Notes: generated by a model not told the origin, from the letters alone. A stretch of DNA of 64,000 bases from an uncultured Bacteroides sp. (GCA_949296575.1 CASFPE010000034.1:116062-180061); one strand, 5' to 3'; shown: positions 40,583 to 62,925, counted from the first letter of the stretch. Program-made: numbers and translations.

Positions 40583-41518
40583 TCACTCCGTCCTTTCCTG
40601 CCTTTCCCCGTAATGAATGTTGCGAGGATGATGCGCTATGATTTCACTACGGAGCATGCTTCGGTCAACATGAGTGTAGATTTCTGTCGTGGCAATATCC
40701 TCATGTCCCAGCATGCACTGTATGGCTTTCAAGTTGGCCCCGCCTTCCAACAAATGGGTGGCAAACGAATGGCGGAAAGTATGCGGGCTAACATTCTTGA
40801 CAATCCCTGCGGCTTGCACCTGTTCTTTGACAATATGGAAAACCATGATGCGCGACATCTTCGTGCCGCGCCGGCTCAAAAAAAGGTAGTCTTCTTGGCC
40901 CTTCTTCGCAGGAACGGCATTGCGGTCGTAAAAATACAGCCGGATTTCCTTTATCGCCCTCGGAGAAATCGGCACCAGCCGTTGCTTGCTTCCTTTGCCT
41001 TCCACCTTGATGAAACCTTCGTCGAAATACAGTTCTGAAAGTTTCAGGTTCACCAATTCGGATACACGAAGGCCGCAACTGTACAACGTTTCCAAAATAG
41101 CCCGGTTGCGTTGCCCTTCGCTCTTGCTCAAGTCCACTGTCGAAATGATACGGTCGATTTCCTCCAACGTCAACACTTCAGGAATCTTGAAACCGATTTT
41201 GGGAGATTCCAACAGTTCCGTAGGGTCAGACTCAATGGAACCGTCCAACAACAAAAAGCGGAAAAACGATTTGATGCCCGAAATAACCCGCGCCTGCGAA
41301 CGGGGATGGATGCCCACGTCATGCAAGCCGGCAGCAAATCCATGCAAAACGTCCAATGTGACATTCTTCACTCCTATGCCTTCCAATAGCAGGTAGGACA
41401 GCAACTTGTCCAAATCGGCCAAATAAGCATCCCGTGTGTTCGCTGAAAGAGAGCGCTCTAACCGCAAGTATTGCTTGTACCTCCGCACCAACTCATTATT
41501 TTCATCCTTATCCACCAT
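40583..41518 (-). CDS. xerD: site-specific tyrosine recombinase XerD
   Basis: 311-aa ORF with a SAM-like N-domain and catalytic residues in context (R..., HTFRHSFATHLLEGG, GH..I.TTEIYTH). It lies among housekeeping genes. Confidence 0.8.
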   Translation of the reverse strand: MVDKDENNELVRRYKQYLRLERSLSANTRDAYLADLDKLLSYLLLEGIGVKNVTLDVLHGFAAGLHDVGIHPRSQARVISGIKSFFRFLLLDGSIESDPTELLESPKIGFKIPEVLTLEEIDRIISTVDLSKSEGQRNRAILETLYSCGLRVSELVNLKLSELYFDEGFIKVEGKGSKQRLVPISPRAIKEIRLYFYDRNAVPAKKGQEDYLFLSRRGTKMSRIMVFHIVKEQVQAAGIVKNVSPHTFRHSFATHLLEGGANLKAIQCMLGHEDIATTEIYTHVDRSMLRSEIIAHHPRNIHYGERQERTE

Positions 41519-45840: not shown

Positions 45841-47370
45841 ATGAAAACAACACTCTTTTCAATGGCGGCACTGCTCCTGATGGCATCCTGCGCATCCAAT
45901 CTTCCCAAGGACGTGCGGCTTTCACCCGCTCCCGATGCGGAAAATATCAACCCCGACACACACTTGGCACTCCTTTTCAAAGAAAAGCCCATTGTGAACG
46001 ATTCTGGAATGATCCGCATCTACGAGGCCGGCACACACCGTTTGATAGACAGCCTCGACCTGAGCATCCCCGCAGGCCCCACGGAAAGCCGGACCTATGG
46101 GCCGGAATGCGACTACACAAAGATTCCATATGATTACACACGCACCTATGTCCCGACCAACAAGAATACCCGTCCAGGCACGCCGTCGGGCATGGCAGAA
46201 CCCACATCCCATGAATACCAACTGAACATCATCGGCGGGTTCACCGACGCTTTCCACTTCCATCCCGTCATCGTGCGCGACTCCATCGCCACCATCTACC
46301 CGCACAACAACATGCTGGAATACGGGAAAACCTATTACGTGACCATCGATGAAGGCGCCATCACCCTTCCAAGCGGAAAATTCAAAGGCATCACAAAGCC
46401 CAATGCATGGACATTCACCACCAAGGCCGCCGCGCCTGCATCCACCGACACCCTGATTGTGGATGCCAGCGGAAAGGGAGATTTCAACACGGTGCAAGGA
46501 GCGCTGGACTTCATCCCCGACTTTTCGGAACAAACGACCGTCATCCTCGTGCGCCCCGGCGACTATGAAGAAATCGTTTATGCCCGCAACAAAACGAACA
46601 TAAAAATAAAAGGAGCCGGCATGGACTGCACCCGCGTGCATTATGCCAACAACGAAGTGTTCAACCCCCACCCCATGAACGTGAAAACCAACGAATGGCC
46701 CGGCACATTCCCTTCGCGCCGTGCAGCCTTCATGCTCGACAACTGCCACGACATCACCTTGGAAGACATCACCATCGCCACAACCTTGAAAGGACAAGCC
46801 GAAGGACTGTTGCTGAACGGCGAACGCATCGCCCTCTACCGTGTGCATGTCATCGGGTCGGGAGATGCCCTGCAAGCCAACGGCACCATCTATATGGAAG
46901 CCTGCCAGATTGACGGCGATGGCGACACCATACTGGGACGAGGCAGCCTGTTTGCTTATCGGTGCGACTTGCGCAACAGCGGAGGGCCTTTCTCTTGGGT
47001 AAGGAACACAGCCGGGAACCACGGGGACGTGTTCGTGGAATGCACGTTCTCCTGCCCCGACGGACACATGGGCGACTACGGGCGCACGAAAACAAACCAC
47101 GGTTCTTCCTATCCCGACGCTGAATTTGTAGTGATAGACTGCCGCGTGAAAAACATCATCCCTGAGGGCTGGAGCAGCATCGGCGAAAGAACGGCACGGA
47201 TGTATGAACACAACACCCGCGACCTCGACACAGGAAAGCCCGTTGACGTGTCGCGCCGCCACCCCTACTCCCGCCAGTTAGATGCCGTAAGGGATGCGGC
47301 CTTGCTCCGCAACTACCGCAACCCGGCCTTCGTGTTGAAGGGATGGCAACCGCAAAGCCAACTGCAATAA
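45841..47370 (+). CDS. pectinesterase-like (CE8) lipoprotein
   Basis: ORF 45514.. trimmed to MKTTLFSMAALLLMASC (lipobox). The C-terminal half has a pectinesterase-like beta-helix with FNTVQGALDFIP, GSGDALQ and DGDGDTILG in place of the QDT/DFIFG motifs. Confidence 0.65.
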   Translation: MKTTLFSMAALLLMASCASNLPKDVRLSPAPDAENINPDTHLALLFKEKPIVNDSGMIRIYEAGTHRLIDSLDLSIPAGPTESRTYGPECDYTKIPYDYTRTYVPTNKNTRPGTPSGMAEPTSHEYQLNIIGGFTDAFHFHPVIVRDSIATIYPHNNMLEYGKTYYVTIDEGAITLPSGKFKGITKPNAWTFTTKAAAPASTDTLIVDASGKGDFNTVQGALDFIPDFSEQTTVILVRPGDYEEIVYARNKTNIKIKGAGMDCTRVHYANNEVFNPHPMNVKTNEWPGTFPSRRAAFMLDNCHDITLEDITIATTLKGQAEGLLLNGERIALYRVHVIGSGDALQANGTIYMEACQIDGDGDTILGRGSLFAYRCDLRNSGGPFSWVRNTAGNHGDVFVECTFSCPDGHMGDYGRTKTNHGSSYPDAEFVVIDCRVKNIIPEGWSSIGERTARMYEHNTRDLDTGKPVDVSRRHPYSRQLDAVRDAALLRNYRNPAFVLKGWQPQSQLQ

Positions 47371-47419
47371 AACAGCAAAGGCTTGGACAGGAGTCCAAGC
47401 CTTTGCGCATTTCAAGCGG
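47316..47419. repeat. left copy of 104-nt direct repeat flanking the type I RM island
   Basis: Matches 56110..56213 at 99/104 positions by hand alignment. It covers the last ~17 codons and stop of the pectinesterase-like gene plus a hairpin. Confidence 0.9.
47376..47405. terminator. hairpin (13-bp stem) after the pectinesterase-like gene
   Basis: CAAAGGCTTGGAC agga GTCCAAGCCTTTG. There is no strong T-run. A second copy at 56170..56199 has loop GAAT. Confidence 0.5.
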
Positions 47420-47518
47420 CAAGAGATGAATTATTTTGTCGCTTAATGCCTCCCCATATCAGACGCACAATCAAAGCAAGGATAACGCTCGTAATCCACA
47501 CCTACGTAAACGTCCTCT

Positions 47519-47653
47519 TTAGGGAATAGTGGTTTTGCCACTACCATTACGGCCATAGATTACACTTAAAGCATCTTTTTTGAAAAGCTCTAATTCCGTT
47601 TCGCTATCAAAGCAGCCTCCTTTTATCTTGATTGTTTTAAAATTTTCAAACAT
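47519..47653 (-). pseudogene. 44-codon stub of a P-loop (Walker A) ATPase
   Basis: MFENFKTIKIKGGCFDSETELELFKKDALSVIYGRNGSGKTTIP* ends two residues after the Walker A motif. It starts 23 nt downstream of the hsdR stop. Confidence 0.5.
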
Positions 47654-47676
47654 ACTATTTATAGGTTGATATAAAT

Positions 47677-50600
47677 TTACGGCTCTGCCGCCATTGAGGG
47701 ATAATCATTATTGAGTATCTCATAAGGTCTAACCGATGTAACTTGAGGTATCGAAATCTCCATTTTAAAATCTTCGAGGAACATTTCCTTATTCTCATCA
47801 ATCAGTTTCTTGACTTTCGCATCATTTGTCTGACGAAGATAACGCCGAAGAAGTTTGTTGTATTCCTTTTCTATATCCTCTCGTGAAAAATTGGGACTAC
47901 GAAGCATTGCCACAAATTTTCCGTCCTCACGGAAAAAGGTAAAAAGCTGTTCCATTTGACCAAGCCAAAACTGCATTTCCTGTTCACGTTCTTCTTCCGT
48001 AGCATTCATTCTGGCAAGTTGATCAAAAATACTAACGAGGCCGGATGTAACACGTTTCTTTCCTGATGGAGGCGTCTGTGTTCCCGATTCACCACCATCC
48101 AATTCACTTGGTTCTTCAACTTCTATTTCCTCACTGACAAGCAAACCTAAACTGCCGTCATAAGAAGTAGATATAAAACCGATTGCGCTCTGACTTTCAA
48201 ACATAGAACGATAGATATTACAATATCGTTGCCAAAAATCAATAAATACCGCGTCAGAGAATTTTGGATCAATCTCAATAACTCCTTGTAAAAGCAAAAG
48301 TTTAGAATTATATCTGCCGATAGCTTTACGCAACGCTTTAGCTGCATCATCTGCATGAGTTTGATCTACTTGTTCTCCACGAGTTTCTACTTCTTGAATA
48401 TACCGGGCATGAGCATCAATCATATTTCTAATCCATATCCGTATATCTGCATCCATTTCAAGGCAAAGAGTCATATTGGTTTCTTTGTTCGATAATGAGT
48501 TACGGTAGCGATCAAACCATTTGGTATAAACAGGTTGCGCCAATAGTCCCCGATGTATTTCTGCAATAACAGCCTTTTCGCGAATTGGGTCAAAATCGGA
48601 TATTAATATGCCACAAAATTCAGCAAAGGCATCTCGGATATTCTTTTCGTTGACGTTCTTAAATGAGAAATCTACGATGTGGCATTCTTCCTTGTATTTT
48701 GTAGTACGATTGACACGTGAAATAGTCTGAATGGCATTGATGCCGCGAATTTCTTTGTCAAGGAAAAGCGTATGGAGCTTAGGCTCGTCAAAACCAGTCT
48801 GAAGTTTGTCTACGACAATAATAATTCCATTCTTGGCAGTTTTAAAGTTATCAATAACCCTATCCTCTGCTACATTGTCATTCATTGACGCACATTTTTC
48901 GTATTTCTGATTGTCAGAATATACAATCGCAACGGGGGCATCAGCATATTTCGCAAATGACCCAGTTGCTGTTTTTTCAGCCATCATATGCCGGATAGCT
49001 TTGCAATACTCTATTGCAATCGGAATGGAACTAACTGCAAGCATGGCTTTGCCTGTTCCTCTTATTTTTCCATAAACCTGCGACAACAAACGATTGACTA
49101 TGAACTTAGAAATAGCCAATATGCGCTCATGGTTTTCATAAACCTTACGTTTGGCCATTGATACTTTATCTTCACGCCCTTCCTGAATAGCCTGCGCCAC
49201 CGCTTGGGAAAGTGCAGTCGGCATATCAAAATGCATTTTTACGTTAACAGGAATAATATGCTTCGCCGGATCAAGGATATATCCGTCAGCTATAGCTTCT
49301 TTCATTGTGTAAGCATCAAACGGCTTCCACAATTGGTTGAAATTAGCACCACGATGAAACTCTCCGAAGCGTGCAAGCACTCGCTGACTTGGCGTTGCCG
49401 TAAAACCTACGATAAGATTCTTCTTAGTAGAGCCACGAGTAAGGAAACCGCCATCCTCGTCAAAAATATCCTGAAGTTCATCAAATGCAGAGAACATTTC
49501 CTGATGGACATCGTCTGTATTGGAACGGTGAACCTCATCTATCAGAAATGCCACACGCAAATTCTTAAAGTCTTTCCCTGCCTTGGTTATCGCATTTTTC
49601 AGTTCCCAGAACTTCTGTATATTCACCACAATGATGCGTCGTTTGTCACTAAGAGCCTTAACAAAAGTATCTTGATCGGTTGCCTCCACAAACATCGCCT
49701 TGTCAATATTCATGTTGAGCATCATGGAATCAAGTTGGTCGCGTAACTGCAAACGGTCAACAACAAGCAAAATCTTGTCATAAACCCATGCTCCGTTATA
49801 GCGCATATCTTTAAGTTGCAACGCAGTCCACCCAATGATGTTGCTCTTTCCGAACCCTGCCGCATATTGCAACAAAAGGGAATAGACATATTTGTTATTG
49901 CAATAACTGTCACGCTCTGCCACAATTCGTTCTATTACATCTTGTGGAGCGTTCATTGCCGTGAGTTCAGCACGAAGTTTCTCAATGAAGTAGTTTGGCT
50001 CGCCTTCATGAGCAAGAAATTCCTGAATGCGGTCAACGATGCGATCGCAGCCGAATTTCTGCTTCGGGCGTGGACACATTAATCTGCCGGTCTTGTCTTT
50101 ATATTCTTTCTTATGTACTTTACGCCCATTCTCTGTTACAGTAATGGTTTTATACGTATAAGCCATAAAGTTATAATAGAGAATCTCTTTCTCTATCATC
50201 TTCTTTGAATAAAGGGAGCGCATTGCCTCCTCAAATCTGGCACGGGGTTCAACGTCATCACCAGCCATAGTCGGCAAGGATTTAAATTCTTTTTCAACCA
50301 CAGGACGATATGATGAGATGGAAATCAGATTTTCCTGAAATCCTTTTTTCACATCTTCAAAGAATTGCCCCGGATTACGGAGTACGTATGTGCTGTTAAT
50401 GTCCGTTGTGACAAGGTGAATGGATTTCTCAAATGGACGAAGCATGGAACGGCGCAATGATTGTTGTGCATCATTTCCATTGGCTATTTTGGTATATTCC
50501 CAAACAGCCTCCAGATAGTCGGTAATCACCTTGGTACGTCCGTTCCTTTTTGCCGTCTGATTGGTAAAATTACTCTTCAGTTCGGCATATCCCAAGAATA

Positions 50601-51078
50601 TGCCGTTTACAAAGAATGACAGGTCTGGACGGAATGCAAAAATTCTTTTTCCTCCATGATGGAAAGAATAAGTCATTTCCTCCACGGCAGAAAAAATATT
50701 CTTCTCAAAATCTTCATCGCCGCGAAGTTCCGTGCCACTGACATACAAAAGTTTTAATGTCTCGCCGCCGAAAGAATAGGGCTTGTTTTTTGTGGTGCTG
50801 TTCAAGAATATGGCGACATTGGCACTTGTTTCTATTTTACACCTGATGTCATCCATGATATCACGAAGCAGCTTCTGCTCATCGCCATCATACTCATTGC
50901 GCCGAAGCAGATTGTTCCAACTGACACGTGAATTTTCTTTCAAGAATTCCTTTAAGTCGGCGGGTATGAAAATATCAGGCGTGACGGTATTATTCTTCAC
51001 CTCACGGAATCCAAGTCCATCGCTACGGCGGCAGAAGAAATCCATTACATATTCGCCTTGCAGTTCAAGTTCAGTCAT
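47677..51078 (-). CDS. hsdR: type I restriction endonuclease subunit R
   Basis: 1133-aa ORF with an N-terminal PD-(D/E)xK (RPDLSFFVNGIFLGYAELK). SF2 helicase motifs are AAGFGKSN, LIDEVHRS, FTATP and QTISRVNR. Confidence 0.9.
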   Translation of the reverse strand: MTELELQGEYVMDFFCRRSDGLGFREVKNNTVTPDIFIPADLKEFLKENSRVSWNNLLRRNEYDGDEQKLLRDIMDDIRCKIETSANVAIFLNSTTKNKPYSFGGETLKLLYVSGTELRGDEDFEKNIFSAVEEMTYSFHHGGKRIFAFRPDLSFFVNGIFLGYAELKSNFTNQTAKRNGRTKVITDYLEAVWEYTKIANGNDAQQSLRRSMLRPFEKSIHLVTTDINSTYVLRNPGQFFEDVKKGFQENLISISSYRPVVEKEFKSLPTMAGDDVEPRARFEEAMRSLYSKKMIEKEILYYNFMAYTYKTITVTENGRKVHKKEYKDKTGRLMCPRPKQKFGCDRIVDRIQEFLAHEGEPNYFIEKLRAELTAMNAPQDVIERIVAERDSYCNNKYVYSLLLQYAAGFGKSNIIGWTALQLKDMRYNGAWVYDKILLVVDRLQLRDQLDSMMLNMNIDKAMFVEATDQDTFVKALSDKRRIIVVNIQKFWELKNAITKAGKDFKNLRVAFLIDEVHRSNTDDVHQEMFSAFDELQDIFDEDGGFLTRGSTKKNLIVGFTATPSQRVLARFGEFHRGANFNQLWKPFDAYTMKEAIADGYILDPAKHIIPVNVKMHFDMPTALSQAVAQAIQEGREDKVSMAKRKVYENHERILAISKFIVNRLLSQVYGKIRGTGKAMLAVSSIPIAIEYCKAIRHMMAEKTATGSFAKYADAPVAIVYSDNQKYEKCASMNDNVAEDRVIDNFKTAKNGIIIVVDKLQTGFDEPKLHTLFLDKEIRGINAIQTISRVNRTTKYKEECHIVDFSFKNVNEKNIRDAFAEFCGILISDFDPIREKAVIAEIHRGLLAQPVYTKWFDRYRNSLSNKETNMTLCLEMDADIRIWIRNMIDAHARYIQEVETRGEQVDQTHADDAAKALRKAIGRYNSKLLLLQGVIEIDPKFSDAVFIDFWQRYCNIYRSMFESQSAIGFISTSYDGSLGLLVSEEIEVEEPSELDGGESGTQTPPSGKKRVTSGLVSIFDQLARMNATEEEREQEMQFWLGQMEQLFTFFREDGKFVAMLRSPNFSREDIEKEYNKLLRRYLRQTNDAKVKKLIDENKEMFLEDFKMEISIPQVTSVRPYEILNNDYPSMAAEP

Positions 51079-51176
51079 AATATAGTGTTCTAATAGAATT
51101 GTGATTTTCTATGCAAATAAAAACTGATTAAATATCAATATGTTACAAGTTGTGTGGATTTTCTTTGAAAATAAGA

Positions 51177-52637
51177 TTACGCATAGAAGGGTACATAAGT
51201 TGAGAACTTCTTTGAGATGCTGTCTTCGTCCGCTGGTTTTATTAGTTTCTCTGTTATTGTATCTGCAATGATACGTGAGGCGGCAGCAGATTGATTCTTA
51301 TTCAGACCAAAACGCTCCCGGACAGATTGGTTGTTGGTGGCAATATTGTCCTCGAACATCAGGCAGGCATGTTGGTAACAAGCCATGATTTTCTCTCGTT
51401 TTGTCATTTCCGCAAGAGTTTTTTGAGGGAACAAAGACACACGGGTGTAATCTTCAAGAGATTGGAATTTAACAGGCGGAAGAAACATCTTTTCTATAGC
51501 TTCAATTGCCCTGTCCACTCCACTTCCTCTCCGTTCACACAATCCAAGCAAAAGCATGGATTGTGCTAACTTTTCATTTCTTGAGCGAGGAGGCAAATCT
51601 ATCAACCGTGCGATATTGTTTAGAGGTGCGCCGGGATTTGTAATCACAAGGCGATTGCTGAATATCTCGATTGTTATGGGTGAACCGTCAATGGCAAAAT
51701 CCTGGTGTATAAGCGCATTGGCTACAAATTCCCTAATGGCGACATTCGGGTAAATCGGTTCAATGCTTCGTGAAACGTCTATAACCTCTTTCCCGGTATT
51801 GCGCATGATAAAATCAATTAGTCCTTCAAAGCCTGCCGCATAACCAAGGCTTTCATGTTGCTCAAATTGCAATTGCCTGTTATTTTGCCCTTCGTATTTG
51901 CGAACCACAACTTCACGGCCGCTTAAAGATGGAAATCTTTTCAGAGAACGGGCGAATAAAATTGCTCCAAGATTTGTTATAGTCCATTTCCCGTTCGTTT
52001 CCGTACAATATCCCATCTCTTTAAGCAAGGAAGCAATTGTATCCGTGGACTTAGGAACATTCCTGTCAAGCAAGCTATAAAGTGCTTGGTAATCCAACAA
52101 ATCAAGCACTTGATTTTGCGTCAAATCATCAAGAGCGGAACTTTCTTCAAAAGAAATACCTTTTGATTTAGCTATCAGTACCTGAACTTGTTTTGGAGAC
52201 ATTTTCAAGGTCTGTCCTCCTGAACGATAATAAGATGCATAAATATCTTTACCTCTTAAATGTACAGGTTTCTCTGCTTCCTCTGGGATATATACAAACA
52301 GTAAGTTATGCCCCTCATAACATTGAACAGAATGCTCAATCTGAATATGGCTTGAAAGATTGTTATAGGCAATATTACCCAGTTTCTTGACTATTCCGTC
52401 GATCTGTTCTTTAGTCAGAGAAAATAATGTTCCATCATCGTTGACACCATATACAAGCATACCGCCATATAAATGATTGGCAAAAGCCGAAATGTGCTGT
52501 GCCAGTCTGTCCGTCTTGTCTGACAACCCGCTTTTCCAATCTATCTCGTTCAGTTCACAGGGGACTGGTTCAAGACTATCTTTTAATAATTGTAAAGCTC
52601 TTTCTGTCCAATGCATTTTTTCATTAATTAATGGCAC
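51177..52637 (-). CDS. AlbA_2 (Schlafen-like) + HATPase_c_4 domain protein embedded in the type I RM operon
   Basis: 486-aa ORF. The N-domain has HISAFANHLYGGMLVYGVNDDG, as in AlbA_2 / 'putative DNA-binding' domains. The C-domain has FVANALIHQDF...ITNPG...CERRGSGVDR, as in the HATPase_c_4 / RecG-C-like family. A GTG start at 52637 overlaps hsdS by 14 nt; an alternative ATG lies at 52616. Confidence 0.75.
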   Translation of the reverse strand: MPLINEKMHWTERALQLLKDSLEPVPCELNEIDWKSGLSDKTDRLAQHISAFANHLYGGMLVYGVNDDGTLFSLTKEQIDGIVKKLGNIAYNNLSSHIQIEHSVQCYEGHNLLFVYIPEEAEKPVHLRGKDIYASYYRSGGQTLKMSPKQVQVLIAKSKGISFEESSALDDLTQNQVLDLLDYQALYSLLDRNVPKSTDTIASLLKEMGYCTETNGKWTITNLGAILFARSLKRFPSLSGREVVVRKYEGQNNRQLQFEQHESLGYAAGFEGLIDFIMRNTGKEVIDVSRSIEPIYPNVAIREFVANALIHQDFAIDGSPITIEIFSNRLVITNPGAPLNNIARLIDLPPRSRNEKLAQSMLLLGLCERRGSGVDRAIEAIEKMFLPPVKFQSLEDYTRVSLFPQKTLAEMTKREKIMACYQHACLMFEDNIATNNQSVRERFGLNKNQSAAASRIIADTITEKLIKPADEDSISKKFSTYVPFYA

Positions 52638-53784
52638 GTTGGCCGGTTACTACTTCGTTTATCAGTGAACGTTTCAGTTCTTTCAATAGCTCTATTTTAG
52701 ATTCTATCATCTTAATGATTGCGTCTATCTTATTGCACTTGTCATCGAGATAGGCAACATCTTTTAATTGTTCTTCGATAGGTGGAAGATATATTGGCAT
52801 ATTGGTCAATTCTACCATATCAACAGCAGCAAAAGTTGTTACTCTACATCCACGTTTACAATACTCATCAATATGGAAGAATTTATAAAACATCCATTTA
52901 ATCGACACTTTTTCTTTCAGCGATTTACGAATTTTAAAATTCGTAAATTGCTGATTCGCAAGCGAATCAGCAATTAGCCAAGCATGTTCGCCAATTGTAG
53001 CAGTAGTAGTAAGTATGAAAGAATTAGCTTCGAATAATCCTGCTGTTTTTATAGCTTCTTGCGTAATATGTTGAATCGAATCAGAAAGAATACGTCCATT
53101 TTTTCGTATATCCTCCATCCTAAACCATGGGATAGTTCCCCCTTCCCAAAATTCATTAACCGCTTTTGATGGTGTATATCCATTTCGCAATTCAAATACA
53201 TCTTTCAAGCGGTATGCATGATAGTTTGGGTTCTTTTGTGTAACTGTTTTTATTATTAGAGAATGACGTAGGTTACGGTAACAATCAACCTTTCGTTCCA
53301 ACAAACCAATCTCCTTCCCAATCTTTCCGCACTCCTTATCTAAATAAGCCACTATCGCTTCTTGCTCAGCAATAAGTGGAAGAGATAACGACACACTTCC
53401 TACTTGCAAAGCATTAGTCCGAGGCATCTTCACTCCAGCTACTTGATTTTTAATGTAGCTAATAAATGAACAGGAAAGAAGGAAATAGAGGAGAAATTTA
53501 TTATTAACCAAATCATTAGGACGTAGAACAATAAATTCTGGTGAACAAATAGAGTCATGTGTGGGAATATATCCCTTGGCAAGGTACGGACGAAGCTTGC
53601 CAAACAGGACATCCCCAGTTTTACAGACATTACTATTCCCATCTGAGGCCGAATCAGATGGAATATAAGTACTATCCCAACTGACAATGTTATCCAAAGC
53701 GATATATGGCAATGAACAATCATTCGCCTTTTCGCTTATAAACTTGGCAACATCTTTAATGCGATAGGTTTGCCACTTATTCAT
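52624..53784 (-). CDS. hsdS: type I restriction-modification specificity subunit S
   Basis: 386-aa ORF with two target-recognition halves separated by conserved helices (LPLIAEQEAIVAYLDKECGKI and LPPIEEQLKDVAYLDDKCNKI). Confidence 0.9.
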   Translation of the reverse strand: MNKWQTYRIKDVAKFISEKANDCSLPYIALDNIVSWDSTYIPSDSASDGNSNVCKTGDVLFGKLRPYLAKGYIPTHDSICSPEFIVLRPNDLVNNKFLLYFLLSCSFISYIKNQVAGVKMPRTNALQVGSVSLSLPLIAEQEAIVAYLDKECGKIGKEIGLLERKVDCYRNLRHSLIIKTVTQKNPNYHAYRLKDVFELRNGYTPSKAVNEFWEGGTIPWFRMEDIRKNGRILSDSIQHITQEAIKTAGLFEANSFILTTTATIGEHAWLIADSLANQQFTNFKIRKSLKEKVSIKWMFYKFFHIDEYCKRGCRVTTFAAVDMVELTNMPIYLPPIEEQLKDVAYLDDKCNKIDAIIKMIESKIELLKELKRSLINEVVTGQRAIN

Positions 53785-55796
53785 AGTTCTATCTCCTTTT
53801 CAAGATTAGCCAATTCCGCATCAATCTCCGCTATTTCCGCAAGGATAGCGTCAACCGGTTCTACCGTTTCAGGCACATAAAACTCCTTGTTAAAGTTTAC
53901 TTCTACCCCTACTGTATTGTCGAGCAGGCGGTAGGGCTTGGAAATATACCGACGCATAAATGCAAGAATGCCTTCGCCGTTCTGTGCAGAATCCGGATGA
54001 TAAGGGATAATCTCAAAATCCTTGTATGTAGAATCTGCTATCTTTACCGTACAGGTCTTATCGCCTCTCCGGGTACGATTGTATGTCACAGTGATACTTC
54101 CCACACCAAGTGCCTCGTGCATTCCTGTAGCAACGGATGTGCGCATAATCGCCCCATTTGCATCATCTGCCCAATAAAAATACTCTGCTGTGGAAACAAT
54201 GGTTGAACCCGTAATTTGGCGAAGACGGATCATTTCCTCTTGATTCTTCCATTCCTTCTCGTCATCAAGAGGCCACTCCCAACTGCCGGAAGCATAAACA
54301 GCCACAATGTCCGCATCCTTTATTTTAAATGTTTCACCTGCGCAACCAAGCGATTGGCTTACGTAACGACCATTCTTATCTACTTCCGTAAGCTGTATTT
54401 GCTGCTTATTAAAGTAAAAATGCCATTTGTCGAAAACCTTGGAAATATCGTTGTCCTCAAAGCGCACAAGGGAATCCACAATCCGTTTGCGGTGTTCTGC
54501 ATTCATCTCTTTCCGCTTGGAACCTTTGTTCTTTTTCAATGGCTGCCAAAGGTCGGAAGCGTTGATAAGAATCACCTTATCCTTGCGCTCGGCTGGCTTT
54601 TTCTTATTCAGTATCCAAAGATAAGTGACAATGCCCGTATTGAAGAACTCATCGGAAGGCATCTGGACAATTGCTTCCACCCAGTCATTGTCAAAAAGGT
54701 ATTTGCGAATGTTGCTTTCGCCACTGCCGGCATCTCCACTAAACAGGGAACTGCCATTGTTGACCTCAACCACAATACCGCTATTTTCATGAAGCATCCA
54801 AGCATTGTGCTGAAGGAATAAAAGCTGTCCGTCGCTGACAGATGGGAAAAACGCAAATTGTCCGGTTTGGTCATTGCGTATTTCTTTTTCATACCCTTTC
54901 CACGGAATGCCGTATGGAGGATTTGCAACAACCACATCAAACTCTTTGTCTTTAAACGGCAATGTGGTTAACGTATTGCCATATTTAACTTCTGCTTCTT
55001 CGCGGAATAGAGATTCAATTTTAGCCAAAGCGAAAAGAGCATCGTTCCACTCACTGCCGTTAGCGGCAACATATTTATAGCCAGCCTTATTGAGACGGTC
55101 TGCTACCCCGAACAGGAGATTGGCACCTCCACAAGTCGGGTCATAAATATGCACATAATCATCATGACTGATGTTTATTTTCGCCGTCACAATCTCAGCA
55201 ATCAGTGCAATAATGTCTTCCGGCGTATATTGTTCTCCGGCTGTTTCAGCAGAAATATCCGCCCACTTGCGCTTGATATGCTCTTCAAGAGTCGTTATTT
55301 CAGAGTTATTGTATGGAGAAAGGTCGATTTGTGCCCACTTGGTTACATACTGCAGAAGCACCCCTTTCTTGCGAAGCTCGGCAACAATGCCGTCAAGATT
55401 CAAGAATTTACTGTCATCTGTTCCTCGTTCTATTCCAAGCAATTCCTTTAACACTCCATCGAAACCGGCAAGATAGTGGCGGAAATCATCTTCAAACGTC
55501 TTGTCATTGTTGCAGATGTCAGACAGCGTCTTGCCATCCTTGACAATATATTCATTGTATCCGCAATCCCTGTCTTTGAATGCTTCCACAAATTCTTCCG
55601 GATTATCTTTTCTGCTTAGTCCTTCTGTCCGCTCTATGTCAACCATCTCATTGCGCATACGCCCTTCCAGCATAACCAACGCAAAGAAGGGCATCATGTG
55701 TTTCGGGAAATCGCTTTGTTTGATTCCCGTAGAAATAAGAAGGTCTGCACAAGACCATATATCCGATTCGTATGATAGTATATCTTTCATAATCAT
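53781..55796 (-). CDS. hsdM: type I restriction-modification methyltransferase subunit M
   Basis: 671-aa ORF with an HsdM N-domain, SAM motif YDPTCGGANLLF and catalytic VVANPPYG. ATGA overlaps occur at both ends. Confidence 0.9.
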   Translation of the reverse strand: MIMKDILSYESDIWSCADLLISTGIKQSDFPKHMMPFFALVMLEGRMRNEMVDIERTEGLSRKDNPEEFVEAFKDRDCGYNEYIVKDGKTLSDICNNDKTFEDDFRHYLAGFDGVLKELLGIERGTDDSKFLNLDGIVAELRKKGVLLQYVTKWAQIDLSPYNNSEITTLEEHIKRKWADISAETAGEQYTPEDIIALIAEIVTAKINISHDDYVHIYDPTCGGANLLFGVADRLNKAGYKYVAANGSEWNDALFALAKIESLFREEAEVKYGNTLTTLPFKDKEFDVVVANPPYGIPWKGYEKEIRNDQTGQFAFFPSVSDGQLLFLQHNAWMLHENSGIVVEVNNGSSLFSGDAGSGESNIRKYLFDNDWVEAIVQMPSDEFFNTGIVTYLWILNKKKPAERKDKVILINASDLWQPLKKNKGSKRKEMNAEHRKRIVDSLVRFEDNDISKVFDKWHFYFNKQQIQLTEVDKNGRYVSQSLGCAGETFKIKDADIVAVYASGSWEWPLDDEKEWKNQEEMIRLRQITGSTIVSTAEYFYWADDANGAIMRTSVATGMHEALGVGSITVTYNRTRRGDKTCTVKIADSTYKDFEIIPYHPDSAQNGEGILAFMRRYISKPYRLLDNTVGVEVNFNKEFYVPETVEPVDAILAEIAEIDAELANLEKEIEL

Positions 55797-56005
55797 TCAT
55801 TATTACCGCCATTAATAAGCTGGCGAGGGTCTACATTCAAAAGCTTTGCAATCTTCACAAGCGTATCAAGAGAGGGTTGCATTTTGTTGGAACACCAACG
55901 AGAAACAGTTGCTTCGTTTTTTCCAATCTGTTCCGCTAACCATTTCCCTGTTTTGCCATTCTCCACCAAAACAACTTTTAGTCTATTGATTTTTTGAGAT
56001 TCCAT
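55793..56005 (-). CDS. XRE-family helix-turn-helix protein, first gene of the RM operon
   Basis: 70-aa ORF with the HTH KWLAEQIGKNEATVSRWCSNKMQPSLDTLVKIAKLLNV. Its stop overlaps the hsdM ATG (ATGA). Confidence 0.8.
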   Translation of the reverse strand: MESQKINRLKVVLVENGKTGKWLAEQIGKNEATVSRWCSNKMQPSLDTLVKIAKLLNVDPRQLINGGNNE

Positions 56006-56049
56006 ATGCTTTGAATTGCCTGCTAATTACAATACCTTGATTTATAACG

Positions 56050-56057
56050 CAAATATA
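56050..56057 (-). promoter_or_regulatory. Bacteroidetes-type -7 box (TATATTTG on minus strand) for the XRE-hsd operon
   Basis: TAnnTTTG match 45 nt upstream of the ATG at 56005. Confidence 0.45.
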
Positions 56058-56109
56058 AGCATAACATTTGGAAATGCCGCCTTAATCCACAGAATTTATC
56101 CAGATTGCT

Positions 56110-56213
56110 CCGCAACCCCGCCTTCGTGTTGAAGGGATGGCAACCGCAAAGCCAACTGCAATAAAACAGCAAAGGCTTGGACGAATGTCCAAGCCTTTGC
56201 GCATTTCAAGCGG
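56110..56213. repeat. right copy of 104-nt direct repeat flanking the island
   Basis: See 47316..47419. It retains an in-frame remnant (...NPAFVLKGWQPQSQLQ*) of the pectinesterase-like C-terminus and the hairpin 56170..56199. Confidence 0.9.
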
Positions 56214-56224
56214 GAACCGCCGGT

Positions 56225-56782
56225 TTATTTGTCGCCGAAATAGCGGTTGTACAAGCCCTCGAATCCTTTTCCGTGGCGGGCTTCGTCCTTGCACATTTCA
56301 TGAACCGTGTCGTGGATGGCATCCAAGTTCAAAGCCTTTGCACGGGTAGCGATGCGCTTCTTGTCCTCGCAAGCGCCTTGCTCTGCATCTTTGCGCTTCT
56401 GCAAGTTGGTCTTTGTGTCCCACACGCAGTCGCCCAGCAGTTCGGCAAACTTGGCAGCATGTTCTGCCTCTTCCCAAGCATAGCGCTTGAAAGCCTCGGC
56501 CACTTCGGGATAACCCTCGCGGTCGGCCTGGCGGCTCATGGCCAAGTACATGCCCACTTCCGTGCATTCGCCCATGAAATGGTTGTTCAGGTCCTTGATC
56601 ATTTCTTCGTCGCAGCCTTTGGCCACGCCGATGACGTGTTCGTCAGCAAAGGTGAGAGGGCCGTTCTCGCTCTCTGTGATTTCCACGAACTTGCTGGCCG
56701 GAGCCTTGCACATAGGGCATTTCTCAGGGGCTGCGTCGCCTTCGTACACATAACCGCAAACTGTACATCTAAACTTTTTCAT
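56225..56782 (-). CDS. rbr: reverse rubrerythrin (N-terminal rubredoxin-like + ferritin-like domain)
   Basis: 185-aa ORF with CTVCGYVY...CPMCKAP at the N-terminus, then diiron ExxH motifs ([18 protein letters not shown]). Confidence 0.8.
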
Positions 56783-56820: not shown

Positions 56821-57243
56821 TTAGTCACAATTCTCATTCAAACATTCCCGGCACACGCCTTTGTAATACTGGTGGACTTCGGACACGGCATGCCCTTCCA
56901 TCCCCGCCGCCATTGCCAAAGATGCGTCCAAAGGCAGGTCGTAAATCTTCCCGCACTTCTTGCAAAGGAAGTGGGCGTGGCGCGAAGTGTTGCCGTCGTA
57001 GCAAACGTTCTTCCCGTCGATTGTCAGCATCTGCACCGCGCCTTGTTCGGCAAAGAGCTTCAGCGTGTTGTAAATGGTGGTCCTCGACAACGTGGGCATC
57101 ACGGTGTTCAGCTCGGCATAAATGGCCTCCACCGAGGGGTGCGTGCAGTGGCTCAACAGGTAGTCCATGATGGCTATGCGCTGTTGTGAAGGCTTGATGC
57201 CATATTGGAGCAACTGGTTGTATGCGTTCGTTGTGGAAACCAT
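56821..57243 (-). CDS. Fur-family transcriptional regulator (PerR-like by context)
   Basis: 140-aa ORF with a winged-helix N-domain, HAHFLCKKCGKIYD and CRECL metal-site motifs. It lies adjacent to rubrerythrin. Confidence 0.75.
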   Translation of the reverse strand: MVSTTNAYNQLLQYGIKPSQQRIAIMDYLLSHCTHPSVEAIYAELNTVMPTLSRTTIYNTLKLFAEQGAVQMLTIDGKNVCYDGNTSRHAHFLCKKCGKIYDLPLDASLAMAAGMEGHAVSEVHQYYKGVCRECLNENCD

Positions 57244-60612: not shown

Positions 60613-61062
60613 ATGATCAAGTACAGTTTAGTCATGCGGGGAGAGCCGAGAAACCCGGAAAAGCCAAAGAAAGTTTACGCCTCGGCACAATGCGCCCAAA
60701 CACTCACTTTGGAAGAATTGGCCCGGCACATCCAGTCGCACGGCTGCGTTTACAGCGTGGCCGACTTCGTGGCCGTCACTAAAATGCTGGCCGAAGCCAC
60801 AACCCGGATGCTGCAAGAAGGCTGCCGTGTGGAGTTGGACGAGTTAGGCACGTTCTATCCCACCTTAGGATGCGAAGGCGCGGAAAGCATGGACGCCTTC
60901 CAACCCGACAAACATATCAAGGAAGTAAGGGCGAACTGGAAGCCCGGCAAAGCATTCAGGAACCTCCGCGACGGCATCGAGTTCGAGGAGAACATGAACC
61001 GCCGCACGGAACGCAAGCTGCTCGCTGCAGAACGCAAAGGGGAAAACAAAATGGAACTGTAA
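60613..61062 (+). CDS. HU-related DNA-binding protein (Bacteroidetes HU_rel type)
   Basis: 149-aa ORF. MIKYSLVMRGEPRNPEKPKKVYA...TLTLEELARHI resembles the Bacteroides histone-like family that I recall as common in accessory regions. Confidence 0.65.
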   Translation: MIKYSLVMRGEPRNPEKPKKVYASAQCAQTLTLEELARHIQSHGCVYSVADFVAVTKMLAEATTRMLQEGCRVELDELGTFYPTLGCEGAESMDAFQPDKHIKEVRANWKPGKAFRNLRDGIEFEENMNRRTERKLLAAERKGENKMEL

Positions 61063-61241
61063 AGACCCCTTCCGCATATAAACGCAAAAAAGCATCAGGG
61101 AGGTTCTCATCCCCATATAGCACTTGCATGCCATCTGCTTTTACTTTCGATGACAAAGGCAAGGAATGTGCTTTACTGAGAGATTTCTTCCAAATCCGCT
61201 TTTATTCATCCCTTCTGAACGGGGGAATGAACTTTTTTATG

Positions 61242-61249
61242 TATGTTTG
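61242..61249 (+). promoter_or_regulatory. Bacteroidetes-type -7 box (TATGTTTG)
   Basis: TAnnTTTG match 45 nt upstream of the ATG at 61294. It lies inside the 5' extension of ORF 61243.., which argues for the downstream start. Confidence 0.45.
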
Positions 61250-61293
61250 TAGATGACATTGGAATATTGCACCCTCACAACAACGAGAAAATC

Positions 61294-62925
61294 ATGCAGA
61301 TACACGATAACAGACTTATAGCAGAATGTACATCTTACGATTTCAAGGAGATGCTGGAACGCAAGAAAGTGAAGTCGTGGCTCAAATCCGTGTCGGCTTT
61401 TGCCAATACGGATGGCGGCAGCTTGTTCTATGGCGTAAACGATGAAGGTGAAGTTGTGGGCTTGGAGAACCCGCAGGCGGATGCCGACTTTATCAGCGAA
61501 ATGATAAAGGCACGGCTTGACCCTGTGCCGGAAGTGCAGCTTATACCGATGGAGTACGAAGGACGCACCCTGCTTGAAGTGAAAGTCAAGGCCGGAGTGC
61601 TGACACCTTATTACTATTATCAAGACGGAACACGCACGGCTTTTGTCAGGGTAGGCAATGAAAGTGTGGAATGCAATGCGCAACAACTCCTCTCGTTGGT
61701 GCTGAAAGGCACGCACATGACGTGGGATTCGCTCCCTACTCAAGTGGATGCCCACAAGCACTCTTTCATCATCCTTGCCAATACATTCCGCGAACAGACG
61801 CATCAGGAATGGAACGACAAGCATTTGGAGTCGTTCGGGCTGGTCACGTCTGACGGCAAGCTGACCAATGCCGGACTGCTGTTTGTGGACAACTGCACCG
61901 TGTTCCAGTCGCGCATTTTCTGCACCCGTTGGACGGGGCTTTATAAAGACGATGCCATCAGCTCGGTAGAACACCGTGCCAACCTCGTCCTGCTTTTAAA
62001 GTACGGCATGGACTTCATCAAGAACTACACGATGAGCGGATGGGTGAAGATGCCAAACTACCGCCTCAATCTGCCCGACTATTCCGACCGGGCTATCTTT
62101 GAAGGACTGGTCAACCACCTTATCCATCGGGATTATACGGTAATGGGCGGCGAGGTGCATATCGACATTTACGATGATCGTGTAGAACTGGTGTCGCCCG
62201 GTGCGATGCTCGACGGCACACAGATTCAAGACCGCGACATCTACAATGTGCCGTCCATACGCCGCAACCCCGTCATTGCCGATATGTTTACCCAGCTTGA
62301 CTACATGGAGAAACGTGGCTCCGGCCTCCGCAAGATGCGCGAACTGACCGAGAAGCTGCCCAACTTTCTGCCCGGCAAGGAGCCCCGTTACAAGACCGAA
62401 GCCTCCTCGTTCTTCACCACTTTCTATAACTTGAATTGGGGCGAGAACGGTAGAATCCCCGTAGAAGAGGTGGCCGACAGGGTAAACAGTACCCTCAAAA
62501 AGTGCCCTGTAAACGAAGAAAGTTCGGAGAAGAAGTTCGGTGAAAACGGAAAAAGTTCGGAGAAGAAGTTCGGTGAAAACGGAAAAAGTTCGGTGAAAAC
62601 CTTCGGTGATTCACAAAAATCTTCGGTGGAAAAGTTCGGAGACAGCAGCCTAAGTTCGGAGACAAGGTTCGGAAACAACAGTGAAAGTTCGGAAACAAGG
62701 TTCGGAAAGGTTGCAAATGAGAATAAAAGTGTTGGAAAGACCGCACAAAAAATCATAGACTTAGTTATTTCCGACCCTTCCATTTCTGCCGAAGCTATGG
62801 CTTATCGTATAGGTGTCAGTTCGAGAGCAGTAGAAAAACAAATTGCCAAACTGCGTTCTATGGGGATTTTAACTCGTGAGGGCGCAACCTTTGGTGGTTA
62901 TTGGCGCATCATAGTAAAACCATAA
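61294..62925 (+). CDS. AlbA_2 (Schlafen-like) + HATPase_c_4 + repeat linker + C-terminal winged-helix protein
   Basis: N-domain has SVSAFANTDGGSLFYGVNDEGEVVG and the middle has LVNHLIHRDY...VSPG...MEKRGSGLRKM. Six 11-aa SSxxxFG repeats follow. The C-terminus ISAEAMAYRIGVSSRAVEKQIAKLRSMGILTREG is wHTH-like. Confidence 0.75.
   Translation: MQIHDNRLIAECTSYDFKEMLERKKVKSWLKSVSAFANTDGGSLFYGVNDEGEVVGLENPQADADFISEMIKARLDPVPEVQLIPMEYEGRTLLEVKVKAGVLTPYYYYQDGTRTAFVRVGNESVECNAQQLLSLVLKGTHMTWDSLPTQVDAHKHSFIILANTFREQTHQEWNDKHLESFGLVTSDGKLTNAGLLFVDNCTVFQSRIFCTRWTGLYKDDAISSVEHRANLVLLLKYGMDFIKNYTMSGWVKMPNYRLNLPDYSDRAIFEGLVNHLIHRDYTVMGGEVHIDIYDDRVELVSPGAMLDGTQIQDRDIYNVPSIRRNPVIADMFTQLDYMEKRGSGLRKMRELTEKLPNFLPGKEPRYKTEASSFFTTFYNLNWGENGRIPVEEVADRVNSTLKKCPVNEESSEKKFGENGKSSEKKFGENGKSSVKTFGDSQKSSVEKFGDSSLSSETRFGNNSESSETRFGKVANENKSVGKTAQKIIDLVISDPSISAEAMAYRIGVSSRAVEKQIAKLRSMGILTREGATFGGYWRIIVKP
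62521..62718 (+). repeat. six in-frame 33-nt tandem repeats (first two identical)
   Basis: AGTTCGGAGAAGAAGTTCGGTGAAAACGGAAAA occurs at 62521 and 62554, followed by four diverged units that each encode SSxxxFGxxxx. Confidence 0.9.

Follow-up and report, generated by a model that had tools for sequence, protein, structure and literature searches.

We identified a type I restriction-modification (RM) island between a pectinesterase-like gene and a rubrerythrin gene in a 64,000-nucleotide stretch of DNA (the window) from an uncultured Bacteroides sp. (GCA_949296575.1 CASFPE010000034.1:116062-180061). The best overall explanation of the locus, to which we give a probability of roughly 0.6, is that the RM operon was acquired horizontally, that the 104-nt direct repeats bounding it stem from a single founding target duplication, and that the interior of the island has since been turned over by recombination.

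The enclosed segment (47420-56109, 8,690 bp) is AT-rich, with a GC content of 0.407 against 0.525 and 0.552 in the flanks and 0.51 in the rest of the window. As annotated with Pfam, PADLOC and the ORF list, all of its genes are encoded on the minus strand. The operon opens with a gene (55793..56005) for a 70-aa XRE-family HTH protein (Pfam HTH_26/HTH_3). It is followed by hsdM, encoding a 671-aa type I methyltransferase (53781..55796; Pfam N6_Mtase; full-length match to PADLOC MTase_I PDLC03029, E 2.7e-115), and by hsdS, encoding a 386-aa specificity subunit with two target-recognition domains (52624..53784; Pfam Methylase_S twice; PADLOC Specificity_I). An accessory gene with Pfam AlbA_2 (Schlafen-like) and HATPase_c_4 domains (51177..52637) separates hsdS from hsdR, which encodes the 1133-aa restriction subunit (47677..51078; Pfam HSDR_N, ResIII, SWI2_SNF2 and T1R_D3-like; PADLOC REase_I). 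With hsdM, a two-TRD hsdS and an hsdR that combines nuclease and SF2 motor domains, the island is predicted to encode a type I RM system. The match of hsdR to TIGR00348 was below cutoff, and since the TIGR matches of hsdM and hsdR both lie under the curated cutoffs, the system belongs to a divergent subfamily. The AlbA_2 cassette (51079-52626) is missing from one variant of the island, where a Logan contig of run X3 joins 51078 to 52627 with 11 nt between them.

At the distal end of the operon, a truncated ATPase stub of 44 aa (47519..47653, minus strand) retains in translation the Walker A motif GRNGSGKT. The stub matches the start of an AAA_13 gene located 3' of hsdR in two island contigs from the fabD site (L096 and L098), with 88% nucleotide identity over 47522-47709. 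In the alignment it is joined out of frame to a 37-aa ORF (47443..47556, minus strand; ORF list) that BLAST and tail alignment identify as the remnant of a tail gene. Pfam, PADLOC and NCBIfam searches of all island ORFs returned no integrase or transposase domain, and the island had no megablast match among PLSDB plasmids or INPHARED phages. An earlier note on this DNA had described an AT-rich, integrase-less island with this set of minus-strand genes, and that description holds.

The same note had aligned the two repeats by hand, and the computed alignment agrees with it: the left copy (47316..47419) and the right copy (56110..56213) are identical at 99/104 positions. As had been claimed, they differ by one substitution and the four loop bases (47389-47392; AGGA versus GAAT); the substitution, at 47325 (G/C), is synonymous within the pectinesterase gene. 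The next-best direct repeats within 13.5 kb reach at most 30 nt at about 70% identity. Each copy includes a hairpin (47375..47406 with loop AGGA; 56169..56200 with loop GAAT) that folds at about -31 kcal/mol (left copy -30.9, z -6.0) with a stem of 14 bp, rather than the 13 bp given previously. In the window this hairpin pattern is found exactly two times, with an expectation of 0 from shuffles. In the left copy the stem is followed, on the minus strand, by UGUUUUAUU, and the hairpin probably functions as an intrinsic terminator. The last 17 codons and the stop of the pectinesterase gene fall within the left repeat, while the right repeat consists of a non-coding pectinesterase 3' fragment and the terminator that would serve rubrerythrin. 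No Rfam family matched in the region.

The limits of the repeat are less sharp than its core. BLAST extends the pair to 127 nt at 89.8% identity (47316-47442 versus 56110-56235), up to the region of the rubrerythrin stop codon; this extension, which about 1% of shuffles match, is only suggestive of a decayed part of the repeat. In the other direction, the earlier note had proposed that TTGCTCCGCAAC also matches if a 9-nt gap is allowed. This is a weak match: the pectinesterase gene has CCGCAAC as a tandem heptamer, and thus only TTGCT counts as extra. TTGCT (56105-56109), which reads TTTCT in about half of the alleles, may extend the right repeat if a 9-nt deletion is granted. We also rejected a degenerate extension that would run leftward from the right repeat into the promoter region of the XRE gene, since that stretch belongs to a head module conserved at unrelated sites. 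No inverted repeat links the two ends of the island.

Both flanking genes belong to the core genome. The pectinesterase-like gene (45862..47370, plus strand; 502 aa in public assemblies; Pfam PF01095 and Big_5; gene call) adjoins ftsX in L066, L092 and L201. The rubrerythrin gene (56225..56782, minus strand; Pfam) keeps its place in all related loci and is followed by a Fur/PerR-family gene (56821-57243). The exact pectinesterase and hsdR proteins were found only on the window's own scaffold. No tRNA is present anywhere in the window. A neighboring tyrosine recombinase (40583-41515), 5.8 kb from the island, was considered as the island's recombinase and rejected; it is the housekeeping XerD and occupies the same place in the species where the site is empty.

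The arrangement that had been postulated as ancestral, a pectinesterase gene and a rubrerythrin gene converging on one hairpin, is found with a single repeat copy both within the same species and in a sister species. In L007 the single copy is 100% identical to the window's right repeat and contiguous with the pectinesterase gene. Also in the same species, a 686-nt Logan contig of run X4 joins 47315 to 56110, and the depth over the island is 0. In the sister species, a MAG (L066) shows the order ftsX, pectinesterase, rubrerythrin, fur.

Other strains carry different cargo at this site, a possibility that the earlier note had suggested checking; the number of unrelated cargos is at least five, and each begins with the same XRE gene. 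The window and L095 contain hsdMSR plus AlbA_2 (cargo A), and L006 contains an 89%-identical hsdM with a different S gene and Asp23. A 1284-1309-aa fusion of MTase, Eco57I and S with DUF5131 (cargo B) is present in L092, L099, L005 and L201, and a 613-616-aa MTase with S and nSTAND3 is found in L002 and L100. As in a core defence hotspot, what lies between the same two core genes varies with the strain, from unrelated defence cargos to nothing. Both repeats are present in 3/3 complete occupied alleles (window, 99/104; L092, 99/99; L201, approximately 102/107); the sample comprises these three alleles and three empty observations, all from metagenome assemblies, in which repeats of such length can confuse assemblers, and sequencing runs are represented by Logan contigs, which break at the repeat.

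The occupied alleles share a common frame. The junction between the right repeat and the head, ...TCCAGATT(G/T)CT|CCGCAAC with a 9-nt unit missing, is the same in every one of them. At the other end, 57 nt of cargo A (47470-47526) match, at 93-95% identity, the middle of a 113-aa tail gene that adjoins the left repeat in the cargo-B alleles L201 and L092, and in cargo A the Walker-A codons of AAA_13 are fused to this middle part. In Logan contigs of runs X6 and X10, the 3' end of the tail gene is joined to an intact upstream part. L092 differs from L201 by a 64-nt deletion at the junction of tail and left repeat. Three different junctions of this kind lie within about 10 nt of one another; we attribute them to deletions bounded by the terminator, although they could reflect a site-directed process. 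Within the frame, one haplotype of head and right repeat carries cargo A in the window and cargo B in L005, and cargo B is also found behind a second haplotype (L092, L099), indicating that the head haplotype is decoupled from the cargo.

Given the one shared repeat-to-XRE junction and the shared tail remnants, we interpret the repeats as a scar left by one old insertion, and a single origin of the duplication appears probable. The many alternative cargos within one frame of XRE head and tail gene suggest that the long duplication was a one-off event and that the cargo was later turned over by recombination. The earlier note had offered three options, mobilization in trans, exchange by homologous recombination through the flanks, and loss of the integrase. 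Exchange by homologous recombination is favored for the present-day turnover, while repeated attL/attR integration is not supported as stated.

The XRE gene and its upstream region form the constant part of the frame. The upstream part (56006..56098, minus strand), defined by aligning heads from 35 upstream classes, is a promoter/operator region with a TAnnTTTG-like box; judged by the established Bacteroidetes promoter consensus, this is probably the -7 box. The region is conserved at many genomic sites as far as the TTTTCTGA motif, and only about 6-10 nt lie between the head bounded by TTTTCTGA and the right repeat. The head recurs at other loci and in other genera with at least 90% nucleotide identity (fabD site; 35 upstream classes), and identical XRE proteins head unrelated cargos at the present site and at the fabD site. 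Among 4762 XRE homologs, those at 89-100% identity stand at the head of type I RM islands across the Bacteroidales. The homology among variants ends at 55788-55795, with a common scar, ATGATTATGGCAAA, after the XRE stop. The 70-aa XRE/Cro-type HTH protein probably regulates the operon. Exact-pattern scans of JGI metagenome contigs and IMG/VR gave no occurrence of the head.

The fabD-site island contigs (L093, L096-L098) stop short of the far border, and most other XRE-headed islands exceed the 10-kb flank, so a missing repeat there is uninformative. At a tRNA-Phe site in human-gut contigs, a similar integrase-less, XRE-headed island is bounded by 74-nt repeats. The repeat boundary of this tRNA-Phe island lies in the T-loop and the island shows tandem accretion; both are hallmarks of integrase action and count against the explanation favored here.

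In the history that we propose, 47420-56109 would be a type I RM operon acquired horizontally into the pectinesterase/rubrerythrin terminator region of a chicken-gut Bacteroidaceae species. The 104-nt repeats, originally possibly about 120-140 nt, would be the scar of one old target-duplicating insertion, with a duplicated target that comprised roughly the final 17 codons of the pectinesterase gene, the 14-bp terminator hairpin shared by both genes and the spacer to the rubrerythrin stop. Such a duplication would have kept every transcription unit complete: the left copy would end and terminate the pectinesterase gene and also face the end of the island operon, and the right copy would terminate rubrerythrin. 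Later the locus would have become a defence hotspot with a fixed frame, running from the right repeat and XRE head to the tail gene and left repeat. Its interior would be swapped by recombination, in which incoming Bacteroidales RM operons bring the conserved XRE head as homology on one side. The far side would be resolved through homology in the tail, the left repeat or the flank, or through illegitimate joining and deletion. Empty alleles would then be either ancestral or products of recombination between the two repeats. As for the founding event, the literature on RM genes inserted with a long duplication of the target holds no established mechanism; the simplest candidate is single-crossover (Campbell-type) integration of a circle carrying a copy of the target.

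Among the alternatives, the one that fares best, though we consider it unlikely, is that the repeats are the functional attL and attR sites of a non-autonomous island that is moved repeatedly by a tyrosine or serine recombinase acting in trans, or whose integrase was recently lost. Direct repeats that rebuild the 3' end of a gene are the classical signature of such elements, and the integrase-less XRE-headed islands at tRNA-Phe, with a 74-nt repeat from the tRNA T-loop and a tandem second island in L138, fit the same scheme. The window's left copy is also relevant here. All four of its loop bases and an 11-nt patch just past the core are unlike those of the right copy, and its AGGA loop and CAAGAGATGAA patch look more like another lineage's allele than like drift in place. 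In the att model these loop and spacer differences could be element-borne; such a foreign-looking copy is as compatible with a site copy brought in by the element, under a Campbell or an att model, as with an old duplication that later underwent partial gene conversion. Against repeated integration, all occupied alleles share one junction, including the 9-nt deletion, and cargos A and B share tail remnants, as a single event predicts. Left-repeat alleles track the strain rather than the cargo, and the two copies are identical in L092. Integrase, excisionase and relaxase are absent from all three complete alleles (window, L092, L201), the sole nearby recombinase is the core XerD, and the 6-10 nt or so between the right repeat and the XRE promoter module leave no space for arm-type sites. 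In the source sample, the depth of the island (18.1) equals that of the flanks (16.9-17.7), which gives no indication of loss, and the plasmid and phage collections hold no match to the island.

We regard as improbable a second alternative, in which the island is a RecA-dependent cassette: a circle with one target copy of about 110-140 nt would form by recombination between the repeats and re-enter empty sites by single homologous crossover after transfer, which would make the repeats the device of mobility. No simpler route to long, variable target duplications that needs no dedicated enzyme is known than single crossover with a circle, and the length and 95-100% identity of the repeats suffice for RecA-dependent recombination. 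Empty and occupied alleles coexist within one species, and the donor-like patch that ends the left copy fits a site copy from another lineage. The scheme corresponds to the virus-like RM life cycle put forward by the Kobayashi group. PMC2853133 reports experimental amplification of RM units via flanking repeats; experimental backing for release and reinfection is absent from the literature. At the present locus, however, the depth ratio is about 1, and circular, tandem or amplified forms are not visible in contigs, the sole data type. The model leaves unexplained how the first circle acquired its copy of the target, and the shared frame is equally well explained by descent and ordinary allelic recombination.

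It is very unlikely that the terminator region was duplicated in tandem first, by slippage or unequal crossing-over, and that the island landed between the copies by chance. This order of events is compatible with the end-state sequences and corresponds to the third class of the published classification, as given in the available passages of PMC2853133. However, related contigs include no allele with adjacent copies and no insert, two independent rare events would be needed at one spot, and the same architecture appears again at tRNA-Phe. Finally, metagenomic mis-joining as the source of the repeat or of the empty site is barely credible, even though metagenome contigs were used throughout and Logan contigs break at the repeat: three scaffolds obtained independently from separate samples (window/L001, L092, L201) show both junction types, as do unitig-level contigs from further runs, the positions at which the repeat copies differ are fixed, a different species in another study's assembly (L066) also has the empty state, and a chimera in L007 would require a switch inside the first 9 nt of the repeat.

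Other classes of mobile element were also considered and rejected. For a Xer-exploiting element (IMEX) at dif, the site of chromosome dimer resolution in the replication terminus, the cumulative GC skew declines steadily between 40 and about 62 kb without inflecting at 47.3 or 56.2 kb, and inspection of the repeat found no pair of 11-nt arms around a 6-8-nt spacer, as in a dif-like site. For a transposon or IS, there are no terminal inverted repeats and no transposase domain, and the duplication is 104 nt long.

The movement of defence genes without an integrase or transposase is at issue in defence hotspots as well as in the 25-year-old class of RM insertions that carry a long target duplication. 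To this the present locus adds a Bacteroidota example of unusually wide natural variation, in which empty sites, at least five cargos, nested gain and loss of cassettes, and decayed junctions occur within one species in chicken guts. A two-step picture is suggested, with a rare founding insertion that duplicates a terminator and then frequent replacement anchored on a conserved regulator gene. If this picture holds, the small conserved head regulators of RM operons would matter for gene flow as well as for regulation, and such loci could predict where new defence systems arrive in gut Bacteroidales. More tentatively, and with doubt prevailing, the XRE-headed RM and defence cassettes of Bacteroidales might form a family of integrase-free mobile units, in which gene-3'-end and terminator repeats of 74 to about 120 nt would be working substrates for RecA-type single crossover or an unlinked recombinase, and the XRE head would provide portable homology with which every cassette of the family could dock into every resident one. 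The present and tRNA-Phe loci would then be two instances, and RM mobility with long target duplication would be testable in a natural population with empty, occupied and swapped alleles.

Several known systems resemble this locus in part. Islands placed by an integrase at the 3' end of a tRNA or protein gene are alike in their repeats that restore the 3' end, their foreign composition and the empty site in relatives. In contrast, the present locus lacks a tRNA and has no integrase inside or next to the island, its head end leaves no space for arm sites, and its alleles have one junction in common.

The type I RM island of EPEC controlled by RptR (PMC12255303) also has a small regulator gene directly upstream of hsdM and an extra defence gene between hsdS and hsdR, an interval described in that study as a potential recombination hotspot. 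In our island the AlbA_2 cassette fills this slot, and one variant lacks it. RptR is a 79-aa bZIP-like protein of Gammaproteobacteria, whereas the regulator here is a 70-aa XRE/Cro-type HTH protein of Bacteroidales, and we rejected homology between the two.

The P. aeruginosa hotspots cDHS1/2 (PMC10250203) and the E. coli hotspots (PMC10121019) share with the present locus fixed core flanks, highly variable defence cargo and low GC. Many of the occupied sites lack any recognizable mode of mobilization; homologous recombination mediated by the flanks has been proposed for core defence hotspots (PMC10250203, PMC10121019). The present locus differs from them in that it is small (7-9 kb), centered on RM and bounded by a long direct target repeat, and in that the XRE head, which it has in common with islands of other genera and at other loci, provides a conserved internal anchor.

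The closest counterpart is the insertion of RM genes with a long duplication of the target (Nobusato et al. 2000; Furuta, Abe and Kobayashi 2010, PMC2853133), and all four defining features in the available passages of the latter are found here. Homologs of R and M lie inside the insert (hsdR, 47677-51078; hsdM, 53781-55796), together with hsdS. The insert, with 8,690 bp between the repeats, is below 20 kb. The repeat exceeds 30 bp, at 104 nt, and is single at the related empty sites (L007, L066 and the X4 contig). Genes of mobile elements are not linked to it, the nearest recombinase being the core XerD at 5.8 kb. The GC content of the inserts described in those passages differs from that of the host, as it does here, and in their type I case from H. 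influenzae, hsdMSR encloses a regulator as well as an ATP-binding protein and the repeat overlaps the 3' end of a neighboring gene. Compared with the duplications reported there, the present repeat takes in an entire convergent terminator and the ends of both genes, and its host belongs to Bacteroidota, a group absent from the taxa that those passages name. The locus is a real example of the integrase-free entry of RM systems into genomes that these authors described, at a site that holds multiple cargos.

Of the 104 positions in the segments at 47316-47419 and 56110-56213, 99 are identical. The mismatches comprise one synonymous change in the third position of a codon, at 47325, and all four bases of the hairpin loop (47389-47392); an earlier note had arrived at the same identity by hand alignment. 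Within 13.5 kb no other direct repeat is longer than 30 nt, and these run at about 70% identity; chance gives nothing comparable to the 104-nt pair. A BLAST alignment runs on to 127 nt with 89.8% identity (47316-47442 against 56110-56235), reaching the rubrerythrin stop region; because about 1% of shuffles yield such a match, we regard the extension as suggestive. The leftward match across a 9-nt gap, also proposed earlier, proved weak, as CCGCAAC is a tandem heptamer within the pectinesterase gene and the extension adds only TTGCT, for which roughly half of the alleles have TTTCT.

Each copy carries the expected hairpin, with a stem of 14 bp and not the 13 bp first reported (about -31 kcal/mol, z about -6). 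Its pattern occurs exactly twice in the window, where shuffles predict 0 occurrences. Since a U-rich run follows on the minus strand, the hairpin is predicted to terminate rubrerythrin transcription well and, as the left copy, that of the island operon too; read on the plus strand, it would close the pectinesterase gene. The 4-nt loop is far more variable than the remainder of the repeat: GAAT, AGGA, GTTC, GAAC and TTCC were found on comparing 47389-47392 and 56183-56186 with the homologous positions in the related contigs L002, L010, L066, L092 and L201. The reverse-complement relation of GAAC and GTTC suggests that template switching inside the palindrome has flipped the loop.

An exact look-up of the rubrerythrin protein returned ten contexts. 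In one of these, L007, the pectinesterase gene passes through one segment copy directly into rubrerythrin; this copy matches the right repeat at 100% identity and still has the 9-nt unit. A Logan contig from sequencing run X4 joins 47315 to 56110, with zero island depth there. L066, a Bacteroidaceae MAG and the closest genome in the GTDB-representative collection (pectinesterase 93% identical), has the order ftsX-pectinesterase-hairpin-rubrerythrin-fur with a single diverged copy. These single-copy sites bear out the ancestral arrangement proposed in the earlier note, in which an empty convergent terminator is the original state.

All other rubrerythrin contexts are occupied; in each, the first gene is the same XRE, at a constant distance from rubrerythrin. 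Downstream of XRE the cargo varies, being hsdMSR in the window, an hsdM 89% identical to the window's with a different hsdS and an Asp23 gene, a 1284-1309-aa MTase/Eco57I/S fusion with DUF5131, or a 613-616-aa MTase with S and an nSTAND3 protein. Thus different cargo at the same site, which had been named earlier as something to look for, is present in relatives. Nucleotide homology to the window ends at 55788-55795, within the first codons past the XRE stop, and the scar ATGATTATGGCAAA at this breakpoint is common to several unrelated cargos. In the occupied contig L092, a 33-nt deletion between two AGCGG motifs at the rubrerythrin 3' end (~9780-9800) removes the stop codon, so that the ORF runs on across the terminator hairpin and is called as 241 aa versus 185.

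The enclosed segment of the window (47420-56109; 8,690 bp) has a GC content of 0.407, versus 0.525 and 0.552 in the flanks. Its genes lie without exception on the minus strand and comprise a 70-aa XRE/Cro-type HTH gene, hsdM (671 aa), hsdS with two recognition domains, an AlbA_2 and HATPase_c_4 gene, hsdR (1133 aa) and a 44-aa Walker-A stub. The stub matches the beginning of an AAA_13 gene located after hsdR in related islands, and is fused with a 37-aa remnant of another gene. Restriction-modification (RM) activity, regulation by XRE and a possible defence role for the AlbA_2 gene are predicted from domains only. Domain searches of the island found no integrase, transposase or relaxase, the whole window holds no tRNA, and the region gave no Rfam match; the earlier picture of an AT-rich, single-strand island devoid of such genes therefore stands. 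The AlbA_2/HATPase_c_4 gene (51079-52626) behaves as a separate cassette, as a contig from run X3 represents a window-type variant without it, with hsdS joined directly to hsdR (51078 to 52627, with 11 other nt in between). A tyrosine recombinase at 40583-41515 was considered as the island's recombinase and rejected; it has an XerD equivalog score and is taken as housekeeping because it occupies the same position in the species with the empty site. The remaining window genes are those of ordinary core metabolism.

Three occupied alleles are complete, and both repeats are present in all three: the window (8.7-kb insert, repeats 99/104), L092 (6.8 kb, 99/99) and L201 (~7.0 kb, ~102/107, with loops GAAC versus GTTC, the reverse-complement pair). 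The right repeat meets the XRE head in the same way in every occupied allele, the 9-nt unit being absent from each. At the other end, a 113-aa gene of unknown family adjoins the left repeat in alleles carrying the MTase/Eco57I/S fusion (cargo B). The window retains 57 nt of this tail gene (47470-47526; 93-95% identity), with the ATPase Walker-A codons joined to its middle, and in other runs the window-type tail 3' end is joined to an intact upstream part. Comparison of L092 with L201 shows a 64-nt deletion in which the tail end and 5-8 nt of the repeat were lost. Because the head junction and tail remnants are common to unrelated interiors, the alleles are best explained by a single founding insertion, the interior of which was then replaced and eroded.

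Cargo is decoupled from the haplotype that the rubrerythrin end, right repeat and head make up. One haplotype over ~1 kb is common to the window (hsdMSR, cargo A) and to L005 and L008 (cargo B); cargo B in L092 and L099 lies behind another haplotype, which cargo C has too. The head also occurs, at ≥90% nucleotide identity, before unrelated hsdMSR operons at other places, including beside a fabD terminator, with ~35 different upstream contexts among chicken- and human-gut contigs. These islands were examined with 10-kb flanks, and their far borders mostly lie beyond. In L093, L096, L097 and L098 (first ~400 nt), the head (92% nucleotide identity) follows a fabD-like gene directly after its terminator hairpin; the hsdMSR behind the head is unrelated and comes with SIR2_2 or AAA_13, and this is a second terminator-adjacent insertion site, in contigs that stop short of the far border. 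Conservation upstream of XRE stops at the TTTTCTGA motif, ~105 nt before the start codon and, in the window, 6-10 nt from the right repeat. XRE homologs number 4,762 at E≤1e-10; the best 120 of these are 75-100% identical to the window protein, all but one at least 87%, with source names from Bacteroidaceae, Phocaeicola and Alloprevotella. We infer that head-anchored recombination brings in new RM operons. Incoming operons would recombine on one side via the shared XRE head, and on the opposite side via the tail, left repeat or flank, or by illegitimate joining. A tyrosine recombinase does lie between several hsdS genes in an XRE-headed type I RM locus with Fic and DUF1016 (L203-L205; ~4434-12070 in L203); this appears to be a shufflon-type locus of phase-variable specificity, and the integrase there would therefore serve hsdS inversion and not island mobility.

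The repeats had first been read as attL/attR-like, and movement of an att-type element by a trans-acting recombinase is in our view unlikely. The window's left copy does differ at every loop base and in a spacer patch of 11 nt immediately outside the core, and so resembles an allele of another lineage, and integrase-less XRE-headed islands bounded by 74-nt repeats also occur at tRNA-Phe in human-gut contigs. However, no recombinase is present, the head end leaves no space for arm sites, and one junction is common to all alleles. Furthermore, repeat alleles follow strain and not cargo (the L092 pair is identical), island and flank depth are equal in the source sample (18.1 against 16.9-17.7), and no relatives of the island were found in plasmids or phages. 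The original finding is real and well described, and its interpretation partly right. The tRNA-Phe islands (L133, L138, L141 and L143) are 10.6 kb with the order RhuM-XRE-hsdM-hsdS-AAA_21-hsdR, and their repeats (97% identical; 8640-8712 and 19310-19383 in L143) consist of the final 18 nt of the tRNA, from the T-loop, then its terminator hairpin and a further ~15 nt; in L138 the start of a second island follows the distal repeat (tandem accretion). A RecA-dependent Campbell-type cassette we hold to be improbable, and chance insertion between the copies of a pre-existing tandem duplication very improbable. The whole analysis rests on metagenome assemblies (the window is identical to ENA scaffold ERZ16268095 scaffold_105, and runs containing it are chicken-gut or bird metagenomes). 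Recurrence of the structure in independent assemblies and in unitig-level contigs makes an assembly artefact unlikely. Should the repeats or the XRE head be active in integrase-free mobility, the locus would gain in interest.

A second variable defence hotspot follows the HU-HIG gene (60613-61062), where strain homology stops at ~61093. The window carries there (61093-64000) an AlbA_2/HATPase_c_4/wHTH gene (61243-62925), a 234-aa ORF and a PLD-SNF2 helicase; L005 has SMODS and SLATT with a type I RM system, L092 has HTH, hsdR and T5orf172, and L002-L004 and L201 lead directly to dnaK. At 62483-62705, within the coding region of the 560-aa AlbA_2/HATPase_c_4 gene, a 33-nt unit is repeated in tandem in at least 5 copies of 69-100% identity. 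An AT-rich stretch between rlmN and rpsA (4962-8224; GC 0.37-0.44), in which a 339-aa ORF without a Pfam match adjoins a 650-aa C-5 cytosine DNA methylase, is probably another acquired RM system; a long flanking direct repeat was sought there and none was found.

The island agrees on every point with the "insertion with long target duplication" that Furuta, Abe and Kobayashi (PMC2853133) defined for RM systems: R and M genes lie inside, the insert is <20 kb, the repeat is >30 bp and aligns once with the empty site, and mobility genes are absent. Their H. influenzae type I case likewise has a regulator and an ATP-binding protein within the operon and a repeat overlapping a gene 3' end. Their account leaves the mechanism open; it suggests a connection with double-strand breaks and also a virus-like cycle, of whose steps amplification alone has been shown. 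The locus likewise matches core defence hotspots described as lacking recognisable mobile elements, where transfer via conserved flanks has been put forward (PMC10250203, PMC10121019). A functional parallel is the RptR island of EPEC, with a small regulator upstream of hsdM and defence genes between hsdS and hsdR, although RptR is not an XRE protein whereas the regulator here is. Taken together, the locus is a Bacteroidota addition to a known, mechanistically unexplained class of RM insertions, and its population-level variation points to a duplication at the founding event and to later replacement of cassettes anchored on the head.
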